Shown here piece after piece: positions 15,001 through 17,568 of a stretch of 17,568 nucleotides of DNA. How positions within the stretch are numbered: position 1 is the stretch's first letter; every line of letters begins with the position of its first letter. Source of the DNA: a virus (lineage: Duplodnaviria; Heunggongvirae; Uroviricota; Caudoviricetes). The stretch lies in IMG/VR virus record IMGVR_UViG_2698536618_000023; one strand, written 5' to 3'. A program made the position numbers.

Positions 15001-17568
15001 TTGAAAACTCCTGCTGTCGGATCAGGTTTAGTGCTGGGGGAGAATACCCCCCCTCCCAAAAGATTATTACGCGGCGTTGTTGCGAGAAGCATCAATACGC
15101 TGGTTAATCCATTCGTCGACTTCACTTTCAATAAAAGCCACGGAGCGGGAACCAATTTTTACAGGTTTAGGGAAGCGCCCCAGGCTGATCAGGCGATAAA
15201 TCCAAGCGCGACCGTAACCAGTACGGCGCATAACATCAGAAAGACGAAGTAAGTTATTTGACATATTCAATCCTCGTAACGTCTATAACCGTCTACAATG
15301 ATGCATAAAAGGAAAACATATTTATAGGTGGGTACTATTTTTAATGGTGGGTACTATTTCAATGGAATAGTGCCCACTATTATTTTAATAATGCTGCCAC
15401 CATTCCAGTATCAATAAGCAAAGAAAACGCACGCTTAACTATGATTTCTCGCCATAAACAAAAGAGTTTTGAGCAAATAGTGCCACCTTTTTTACGAAGG
15501 GTGGGCACTATTTAACTATTTGTTTTTCTTTTCCTTCTTCCAACTTGCTGCAAGCCAGTGGGGCGTAGTATCAGGTTTACAGCCTCGGCCATGTTCTGCC
15601 CCGCTCCCCTGCCTTTCAGGTATTCAACAACATCATTTCTTGTAGGGGCTGTTTGTTGATTATCTGGATCATATGTTGCCCAAAGTTCTCTTATTGCGTC
15701 TTCTACATATTCAAGACCTTCGCTCTTATGACCATAAGTCAGCAATACTGTTTCTTCAGAATTAATCACGCGCGATTCAGCATCAATTATTACTGATTGG
15801 TTAGATGGCTTAATCTCCTTATCCGATATAGAGCGAGGAGGTCTTACATAATCGACCCTCTCATTTCTTACCCATTCAAGTAAAGAATGACGGGTAATAA
15901 TTGTTTCGTCCATGGATATTTTCTTCAAACGATCTGGTATCTCTGTACGGGGGGGGCCGGATGCTCTTTGTACTTCCCACAAAGGATAATATTCAATCCA
16001 CACAGGAGTTAATACACCACGACGAATTGCAGTAACCATTCCATTAGCCAACCCCCATGCCATTTTCCAACGTTCATGTTTATAATCTCTGGCATGTTCA
16101 AGAGTAGGGTAATCATAAGGATCAATTCCGGCCAACAATAAAGCGGCTTGGGTGATAGAAAACTCCTGTACTGTTCGCCAGTGGGATAAGTCAGGAATGT
16201 TTTCCACAATTGGCATATTCTCCCCCTTCAAGCGGTCTAATGTTAAGGCCGATCCAGTTCGGTTTGCATCAGCCTTTTTAGTCGCTCAAAGTCTACTACT
16301 GTATACTCAACCAGTCATCCACATTTTCCAAACTTGCCATGTACCACATTCCCGCCCTGTTCCAGTGAGTCCATATAGTCGGCGTACCACTGGAGCATCT
16401 CCTGCCGTCCGTCCAGGTATTGCGCGTGATTGTATGTGCCACGGATCGAGTTTTTATCGACGTGCGCCAGCTGCGTTTCTATCCACGCGGAGTTATAACC
16501 CTGCTCATGCAAAATCGTACTCATGGTATGCCGGAACCCATGACCAGTAACGCGCCCTGCATAGCCAATACGACGAATAAGCACGTTCATAGCCATTTCA
16601 CTCATCGGCTTACTGTGCTGTATTCGACCAGGGAAAATAAACGGATACTGCCCCGTCATGTGTTTTAACTGTTCCAGAATAGCGATCGCCTGTTCTGAAA
16701 GTGGCACGCAATGAGGACGGCGCATTTTCATTCGTTCTTTCGGCACTTCCCACAGACGATTATCAAAATCAATCTCCTGCCACTCTGCCTGCCGTAATTC
16801 ACCTGGGCGGAGTCCTGTAAGAATCAACAATCGCATACCCAGCTTGACGATCTGGCTTCCGGTGTACGTATTAAAAACGCGGAAAAACTCCGGTAGCTCA
16901 TCAACTTTCAGATACGCGTAATGCTCTTTCTTGTGTGGTGCAAATGCGCTTGCCAGATCAGGAGCGGGGTTATATTCAGCGCGTCCGGTAATTATTGCGT
17001 ACCGGAACACTTCGCCACATCGCTGTCGAACCTTACGCAATTTTTCAGTTGCGCCACGGTCATTAAGACGAGAGAGAACCGCGAGCAATTCCATCGGTTT
17101 TATTTCTGCTATCGGTTTGCTGCCGATATACGGGAATACGTCCTTCTCAAACGTATCAATCATCTCTGCGGCATATGATTGTGACCATCTGTCCAGGCGT
17201 TTTTCATACCACTCACGGGCGATCGCCTCAAAGGTGTTACCGCATTTGTTCGCCTGTTCTCGCTTTTGGGCCTTTCTGACCTCACTCGGATTAACTCCAC
17301 CAGCGATAAGCCTTTTGGCTTCATCCCTTGCCGTCCTGGCATCAGAAAGGGACACCTCAGGATAAACACCCAGCGACAACATTTTGGGCTTGCCTGCAAA
17401 CCTGTATCGCAATCGCCAGCCCTTCGAACCGTTCGGCTCAATGAGTAACGAAAGCCCGTTGCCGTCATTGAGTGTATAGGCTTTCTCTTTTGGCTTCGCG
17501 CGACGGATAGCAAGGTCTGAAAGCAACATGTGTATAGCCCCCAAAAAACGATTTTGTCCTATACGCAT

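Follow-up and report, generated by a model that had tools for sequence, protein, structure and literature searches.

A candidate regulator-operator cassette between the integrase and alpA genes of a satellite island related to EcCICFT073 and P4

The subject of this work is a single gene, here called X, and the short spacer behind it in a 17,568-nucleotide stretch of Caudoviricetes DNA (IMG/VR virus record IMGVR_UViG_2698536618_000023; hereafter, the window). X lies between the gene for a P4-type tyrosine integrase (int; 16315 to 17568, minus strand; domains Arm-DNA-bind_3, Phage_int_M, and Phage_integrase), which forms the upstream border of the slot, and alpA (15067 to 15264, minus strand), whose 65-amino-acid product matches PF05930 (E = 2.7e-20) and which we presume to be the regulated gene. 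The likely start of X is the ATG at 16216, which gives a protein of 234 amino acids (705 nucleotides; 15512 to 16216, minus strand); a longer frame of 239 amino acids opens at a TTG (15512 to 16231, minus strand). RefSeq/PGAP predicts the identical 705-nucleotide gene, as WP_001123241.1 (“hypothetical protein”), in an Escherichia coli chromosome that is 99.9% identical. Directly 5′ of the ATG stands the Shine-Dalgarno-like AGGGGGAG (16220 to 16227, minus strand; read from the sequence). The GC content of X is 42.4%, compared to 49.8% for int, 47.5% for alpA, and 52.5% for rha, and that of its third codon positions (GC3) is 32.8%, compared to 51.7% for int; the three genes int, X, and alpA share one orientation, that of the minus strand. 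A preliminary description of this DNA had listed an open reading frame (ORF) of about 234 codons with a strong ribosome-binding site, lower GC than both neighbors, the direction of int and alpA, and no recognizable domain, and each of these features holds.

X is a real, conserved gene, because it has 57 full-length homologues at 38 to 99% identity (named sources: Enterobacterales, Pseudomonas, and Azotobacter), its relatives at an E value of ≤1e-3 make up 1,160 cluster representatives, and its ratio of nonsynonymous to synonymous substitution rates (dN/dS) is 0.10 to 0.38 in five pairwise comparisons. The protein has no match in Pfam, PHROGs, or NCBIfam, an HTH_3/XRE domain included in the case of Pfam, and 0 of 36 family members match Pfam. 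The remote-homology searches and structure prediction that had been proposed as a way to recognize an anti-phage gene brought out neither a defense signature nor a solved-fold match: the best hit of X among the anti-phage defense hidden Markov models of PADLOC-DB v2 is Csx20 at chance level (E = 0.037, 12 bits), and PDB sequence profiles gave nothing with either the whole protein or its C-terminal domain. A tblastn search against 50,697 phage records likewise returned no match, and a literature search found no paper on the family, a search by accession being equally empty. In Gilliamella (locus L008, 8001 to 8675; comparison loci and proteins are cited by L and P numbers), a stop codon at 8339 breaks the X homologue, and no AlpA match comes after it; this is probably a decaying copy.

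The 247-bp spacer between X and alpA contains six copies of the 13-bp box AATAGTRCCCACC, one of them degenerate, within 186 bp; the core common to the family is GTRCCCACC, and 0-mismatch copies of the box occur nowhere else in the window. Box 1 (AATAGTGCCCACC; 15500 to 15512, minus strand), whose first base is the last base of the TAA stop codon of X, is the left arm of a distal inverted pair, and box 2 (AATAGTGCC-ACC, one C shorter; 15476 to 15487, plus strand) is its right arm; as RNA, the two fold into a hairpin of −18.6 kcal/mol (z = −4.8) without an adjacent U-tract. Toward alpA follow the degenerate box (AATGCTGCCACC; 15390 to 15401, plus strand), box 3 (AATAGTGCCCACT; 15366 to 15378, plus strand), which is part of the palindrome AATAGTGGGCACTATT, box 4 (AATAGTACCCACC; 15346 to 15358, minus strand), and box 5 (again AATAGTACCCACC; 15327 to 15339, minus strand). 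Box 5 abuts a −10-like TATAAAT (15320 to 15326, minus strand), about 55 nucleotides 5′ of the alpA ATG, which we take from its sequence as the putative −10 element of alpA. A consensus scan gave an alternative promoter, TTGAAA-17-AATAGT, inside the same box cluster. The −35 element of the alpA promoter is poor, and the distal and proximal clusters are about 125 bp apart.

This layout recurs well beyond the window. Allowing at most one mismatch, we counted 57 matches to GTRCCCACC in the 5.2 kb made up by 25 distinct X-alpA spacers (11.0 per kb) and 76 in the remaining 250 kb of those loci (0.30 per kb), that is, a 36-fold enrichment in the spacers; in the loci scanned, no clustering was seen near the att site or the tRNA. 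Positions 1 to 9 of the box are nearly invariant across loci, with variable flanks, and the first box usually lies 2 to 30 nucleotides from the X stop codon, the last often 62 to 82 nucleotides before alpA. In enterobacterial loci, a TATAAAT, TATATT, or TATTTT adjoins the last box, whose neighbor overlaps the −35 region. Separately, a conserved block in the alpA 5′ untranslated region, CTCGTAAACCGCAATAGACGTTACGAGGTAAAT in L002, L003, L004, and L013, folds into a short hairpin (CTCGTAA/TTACGAG) in which the Shine-Dalgarno sequence of alpA is included; the block is slightly variant in L053, a locus without X, and takes the form GTAGACGGTTATAGACGTTACGAGG in the window (approximately 15268 to 15300). 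This block may serve to control alpA translation.

The order int-X-alpA holds in nearly all of about 60 loci in which the flanks are present, from E. coli to Pseudomonas, metagenomes, and IMG/VR, with the adjacent P4-type integrases 33 to 100% identical and the int/alpA synteny persisting down to 34% identity. All 18 of the 18 IMG/VR loci show this order, each with at least one GTRCCCACC match in the gap; in Pseudomonas aeruginosa, X and alpA stand together at the edge of the island, with no int beside them. The modules downstream vary (Rha, Bro-N, DUF927, DUF3631, or D5 primases), which leaves X-alpA as the constant unit. The preliminary description had called for a comparison of the int-alpA gap across related islands, and the occupant indeed varies, so that X is not a universally conserved core gene: in islands with 96 to 100% identical Int proteins, the slot contains X, a 265-amino-acid protein, a DUF6387 protein, a reversed ORF, or nothing, and 300-amino-acid proteins also occupy it. 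In L053, the 265-amino-acid protein is followed by five copies of ACCCTNAGGGT; in L052, the DUF6387 protein is followed by the inverted repeat TCCGCTTTGAA; and in L056, a 246-amino-acid protein is followed by the inverted repeat TCCCAAATTGG. In EcCICFT073, the prototype phage-inducible chromosomal island (PICI), no gene separates int from alpA. The gap of this island (L069, 11188 to 11252) holds five to six repeats that contain ACAAC and are spaced exactly 10 bp apart, with an extra copy at 11449, and these could be AlpA or Int sites. EcCIMP1_002, which lies between int and alpA of a studied PICI, was considered as a counterpart of X and set aside as a small unrelated protein.

To which protein the boxes belong is best seen in natural exchanges, for which we retrieved E. 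coli islands whose alpA genes are similar and compared their slots and repeats. L023, with X in the slot, and L053, with the 265-amino-acid protein, encode Int proteins that are 100% identical and AlpA proteins that are 97% identical, and their repeats differ. Their DNA homology ends about 48 bp past the int stop codon and starts again some 21 bp ahead of the alpA ATG; therefore, the slot gene has been exchanged together with its boxes and the alpA promoter. Conversely, the AlpA proteins of the window and of Pseudomonas or soil metagenome loci are only 43 to 45% identical and have different recognition helices, and yet GTRCCCACC is common to them. No such boxes occur in EcCICFT073, where the slot is empty, and the idea that they are integrase arm sites was rejected because none lies near the att site. 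Judging from these comparisons, the repeats belong to the slot protein and not to AlpA or Int, because they differ between islands with near-identical Int and AlpA and are common to islands with divergent AlpA. X is not functionally separate from core control, in that the exchanged block takes in the alpA promoter and the boxes overlie it, and a slot gene with its own boxes and the alpA promoter bears the signature of a regulator-operator cassette, not of stand-alone cargo.

The AlphaFold model of X (mean confidence score, pLDDT, 77) predicts an N-terminal alpha/beta domain (approximately residues 10 to 125; pLDDT of >90 for most), a disordered linker (approximately residues 126 to 165; pLDDT of <50), and a C-terminal domain of three helices (residues 168 to 217; pLDDT, 81 to 88), followed by the basic tail GRRKRK. 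In this model, the C-domain looks like a helix-turn-helix. An assignment of the N-domain by eye as a MerR/Xis/HTH_17 fold with an insertion (TVQEFSITQAALLLAG ... TIITRHSLLEWV) was dropped, with an hhalign probability of 0.4% against the AlpA profile. The X protein of the window is a mosaic: residues 1 to 72 match the L023/P0006 type at 97% identity, the part from about residue 100 to residue 234 is, like the entire X-alpA spacer, almost the same as in the L017/P0004 type, and residues 73 to 100 are unlike both. This pattern indicates recombination inside the gene.

Across loci, the boxes covary with the C-terminal three-helix domain and not with the N-domain. In L005, the N-domain is canonical (68% identity to that of the window over residues 1 to 72), helix 3 of the C-domain is NLARSVDEVLRP and not NMAEAVNLILRP, and the repeat, AACCTAGCYNCTGTT, is unrelated. 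The N-domains of L010 and L041 are more divergent (52% and 49%), as is that of L049, and all three loci keep both the helix 3 motif NMA(E/D)AVNL(I/V)LRP and the boxes. L013 and L034 (NLAEAVDLVLRP) carry the variant CACCCATC. The 300-amino-acid proteins of L048, L087, and L088 join an unrelated N-terminal part of 200 amino acids to an X-type C-domain, and X-type boxes are kept; the C-domain proteins P0080, P0082, and P0124 have other helix 3 sequences and other repeats. In L062 (2333 to 2543; P0077), a different N-terminus precedes the helix 3 sequence NQAEAVDLILRP and then GCACCCACCC boxes, consistent with a C-domain reader. An earlier idea, that the N-domain reads the boxes, had L062 as its exception and was overturned by L005, L010, L041, L048, and L087.

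The master activator of Gram-negative PICIs is alpA; it stays silent until a helper phage induces it via an unidentified factor, after which AlpA activates its own expression (PMC6092414, PMC11773190). No repressor is known for these islands, a global repressor having been described as “unclear” and the inducer as “under study” (PMC6092414). We hold it to be somewhat better than an even bet that X is an island-encoded, sequence-specific DNA-binding regulator of the alpA promoter, and it probably acts as a repressor. In the mechanism that we propose, the C-domain, with its helix-turn-helix-like fold and basic tail, would read the 13-bp AATAGTRCCCACC boxes, and X bound there would hold alpA off in the quiescent island, with the proximal cluster covering the −35 region and the spacer of the promoter and touching the −10 element. 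Looping between the two clusters would be likely, because they are about 125 bp apart, and the distal pair, or its RNA hairpin, might in addition stop read-through from int and X. The N-domain would serve in oligomerization or in sensing a signal; through it, a product of the helper phage could end repression, upon which AlpA would activate its own gene and the satellite cycle would begin. A constant C-domain with exchanged N-domains would fit a design of DNA reader plus variable sensor.

The same protein-box pairing would also allow the opposite sign. X might bind these boxes and activate alpA, or act as an antitermination-type switch, for instance, on a helper-phage signal. The poor −35 element is typical of activator-dependent promoters, alpA does require induction by a helper phage, and X-like genes always stand directly upstream of their would-be target, alpA or rha. 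Against this, one box fills the promoter spacer up to the −10 element and another lies over the −35 region, a geometry that normally excludes RNA polymerase; moreover, in the quiescent island the expression of X apparently comes from the int side, and positive feedback is already supplied by AlpA. We therefore regard activation as unlikely, and within the regulator reading, repression appears about twice as likely as activation, because the boxes occupy the spacer of the promoter and reach over the −35 element. That X is accessory or anti-phage cargo in a hotspot beside int, with repeats that are only its own terminator or regulatory sites, is less likely again. This was the proposal of the preliminary description, and the part of it that stands is turnover: the slot changes content among near-identical backbones and may be empty, and the GC content of X is below that of its neighbors. 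Satellites, moreover, reportedly bear defense genes at hotspots. The anti-phage part fares worse, since X has no PADLOC match and no enzymatic or effector-like domain, int/alpA synteny extends down to 34% identity, and the boxes lie over the alpA promoter, which is itself inside the exchanged block; other slot proteins keep the C-domain and swap the N-domain, as expected of a regulator family.

The last two alternatives detach the boxes from regulation by X altogether, and we consider both of them highly improbable. If the boxes were bound by AlpA for its autoactivation, by Int as arm sites, or by a host factor, the function of X would be unrelated to them; AlpA does activate its own promoter in related PICIs, so that AlpA sites must lie somewhere in the spacer. 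The L023/L053 pair, with identical Int, 97% identical AlpA, and different repeats, argues against such a binder, as do the boxes common to loci whose AlpA proteins are only 43 to 45% identical and their absence near att or tRNA and in the slotless EcCICFT073. A replication-origin (iteron) or packaging-site (pac/cos) module made up of X and its boxes is countered by the P4-type origin already present in the island (nine TGTTCACC iterons at 9552 to 9772, as in the crr region of P4), by an X protein without helicase, Rep, or terminase oligomerization architecture, and by relatives of the N-domain that lie in prophage early regulatory regions and not in packaging modules.

Several observations weigh against X as a box-reading repressor of alpA. 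Linkage alone could cause a gene and its flanking DNA to covary. Proteins that have only the N-domain (C-terminus ...NWNKKGG; L058, 3001 to 3795; L059, 3001 to 3738; L065; and L066) are encoded in the early regions of prophages, with an HTH_3 gene on one side and rha on the other, or before alpA, and CCCACC-type boxes follow them in three of five loci, which the C-domain model does not explain; hhalign detected no homology between the C-domain of X and the C-termini of these proteins. The sign of the proposed control is read from a single feature, box position. Finally, EcCICFT073 functions with an empty slot, so that satellites of this type can do without such a regulator, and two C4-type RNAs could be the main immunity system of the island. 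Because EcCICFT073 works without a slot gene and the island also has C4 RNAs, X as a repressor would be an optional extra layer of control, not a universal requirement. A more far-reaching idea is that X-type cassettes are the helper-phage sensors of Gram-negative PICI/P4-like satellites and the functional counterpart of Stl from the Staphylococcus aureus pathogenicity islands (SaPIs), with a C-domain that shuts the alpA promoter and N-domains that each recognize a different helper protein; we put this forward as possible but rather doubtful. Prophage proteins with an X-type N-domain could then be natural inducers or competitors at satellite operators.

The rest of the window places the cassette in its island. 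The gene order is int, X, alpA, rha, an antA remnant, and two C4-type RNAs among icd-like remnants, followed by small ORFs, a D5/alpha-like primase, ssb, proQ, perC genes, and a Q antiterminator. This backbone closely resembles that of the studied PICI EcCICFT073 (int, alpA, icd-like, DUF4222, primase, ssb, and perC) and also resembles P4. In strain 2012EL-2448, the island is located at tRNA-Gly, beside actS and xdhA, and in L001 a tRNA-Gly lies just past int. Immediately 3′ of the primase gene (9786 to 11609, minus strand), a repeat-rich region (9537 to 9784) contains nine exact copies of TGTTCACC on both strands (9552 to 9772), compared to 0.56 expected by chance. In the P4 record, this octamer bears the label “ori type 1 repeat” where it occurs in crr, in the equivalent position relative to the alpha gene, and 9552 to 9772 is probably the replication origin or crr of the island. 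The sole match to the iteron region in the phage database is LR881103.1 (Escherichia phage vB_KppS-Ant, 16.5 kb, “induced prophage”), at 74% identity over 274 bp, and the 16.5-kb size suggests that this record is a packaged satellite deposited as a phage.

The two C4 antisense RNA genes (12531 to 12619 and 13012 to 13099, minus strand; Rfam RF01695, 74 and 70 bits) are full length and sit among the icd-like remnants, as a P1/P4-type RNA immunity module. A 507-amino-acid “ORF” at 12766 to 14289 is not a gene and consists of an AntA N-terminal remnant, noncoding sequence, and an Ash-like frame; PGAP calls pseudogenes in the matching region. At the far end of the window, the proteins listed, all on the minus strand, are a 543-amino-acid second tyrosine-recombinase-like protein (1613 to 3244), a phage Q antiterminator (4133 to 4531), a 412-amino-acid Sulf_transp (YeeE/YedE-like) membrane protein (4838 to 6076), and a weak KilA-N match (1 to 564). 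The annotation of 2012EL-2448 gives, for the far-end stretch, a glycoside hydrolase family 15 gene and a 124-amino-acid hypothetical protein, with neither a sulfur-transporter nor a second-recombinase gene (a comparison of annotations only).

Satellites of the Gram-negative PICI type, which spread virulence and defense genes, are common among E. coli and related bacteria. How alpA is kept silent and switched on by a helper phage has been an open question since 2018 (PMC6092414), for which the X locus provides a concrete candidate. X represents an uncharacterized family of about 1,160 cluster representatives with a putative operator and a putative target promoter, and the natural swaps predict orthogonal specificities; should the cassettes also be sensors, a swap would retarget a satellite to a new helper. 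What appears to be new here is an unannotated family without structural neighbors in the role of a candidate repressor-operator specificity cassette, at a point of the island where a regulator was missing. The case also cautions against calling every unknown gene beside a satellite integrase defense cargo.

X is not a small terminase or Rpp protein, as it has neither their N-terminal helix-turn-helix with a central oligomerization domain nor a place in a packaging module, and the Pseudomonas “AlpA” antiterminator is not a relevant precedent, being a different, Q-like protein. The AlpA/Vis/TorI family (PF05930, HTH_17), small DNA-binding regulators and excisionases of P4-like elements and PICIs, supplies the neighbor of X in the same control region, but X has no Pfam match to it, profile-profile comparison by hhalign gave 0.4%, and the boxes do not follow AlpA. 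DUF6387 proteins (PF19924), one of which also lies upstream of alpA in ICEKp258.2 (PMC10763509), and other proteins encoded upstream of alpA share the slot, the orientation, and a similar size (230 to 300 amino acids) with X. Each of these slot proteins has its own inverted repeat just past its stop codon, and these repeats are unlike the X boxes. No homology between X and these proteins was detectable, and our literature search found nothing on DUF6387 function. The gop-beta-cII region of P4 and the defense hotspots of P4-like elements are, like the X slot, variable and adjacent to int; P4 cII itself (264 amino acids, directly downstream of int) is unrelated to X (hhalign, 0.5%), and X differs from the hotspots in having no defense-model match and a cassette wired to the alpA promoter.

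Closer parallels are found among repressors. The split operators of lambda CI and 186 CI type consist, like the X boxes, of two clusters of one site, with one cluster over a promoter, although X has no homology to these proteins, its gene is codirectional with the putative target, and one of its putative operators overlaps the end of its own coding sequence. From Stl of the SaPIs and Rpr of the Gram-positive PICIs, X is set apart by having no sequence or fold similarity and no HTH_3/XRE match, by its orientation (X is co-oriented with its putative target, whereas Stl and Rpr are divergent), by the predicted C-terminal position of its DNA reader, and by its putative target, the activator gene alpA. 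Yet Stl and Rpr are what X would work most like: they are likewise encoded by the island beside int and differ strongly between similar islands, they have their own operators in a spacer that controls activation genes, as X would with its putative ones, and they join one domain for DNA binding to a second, variable one for sensing, which is the design that we propose for X.

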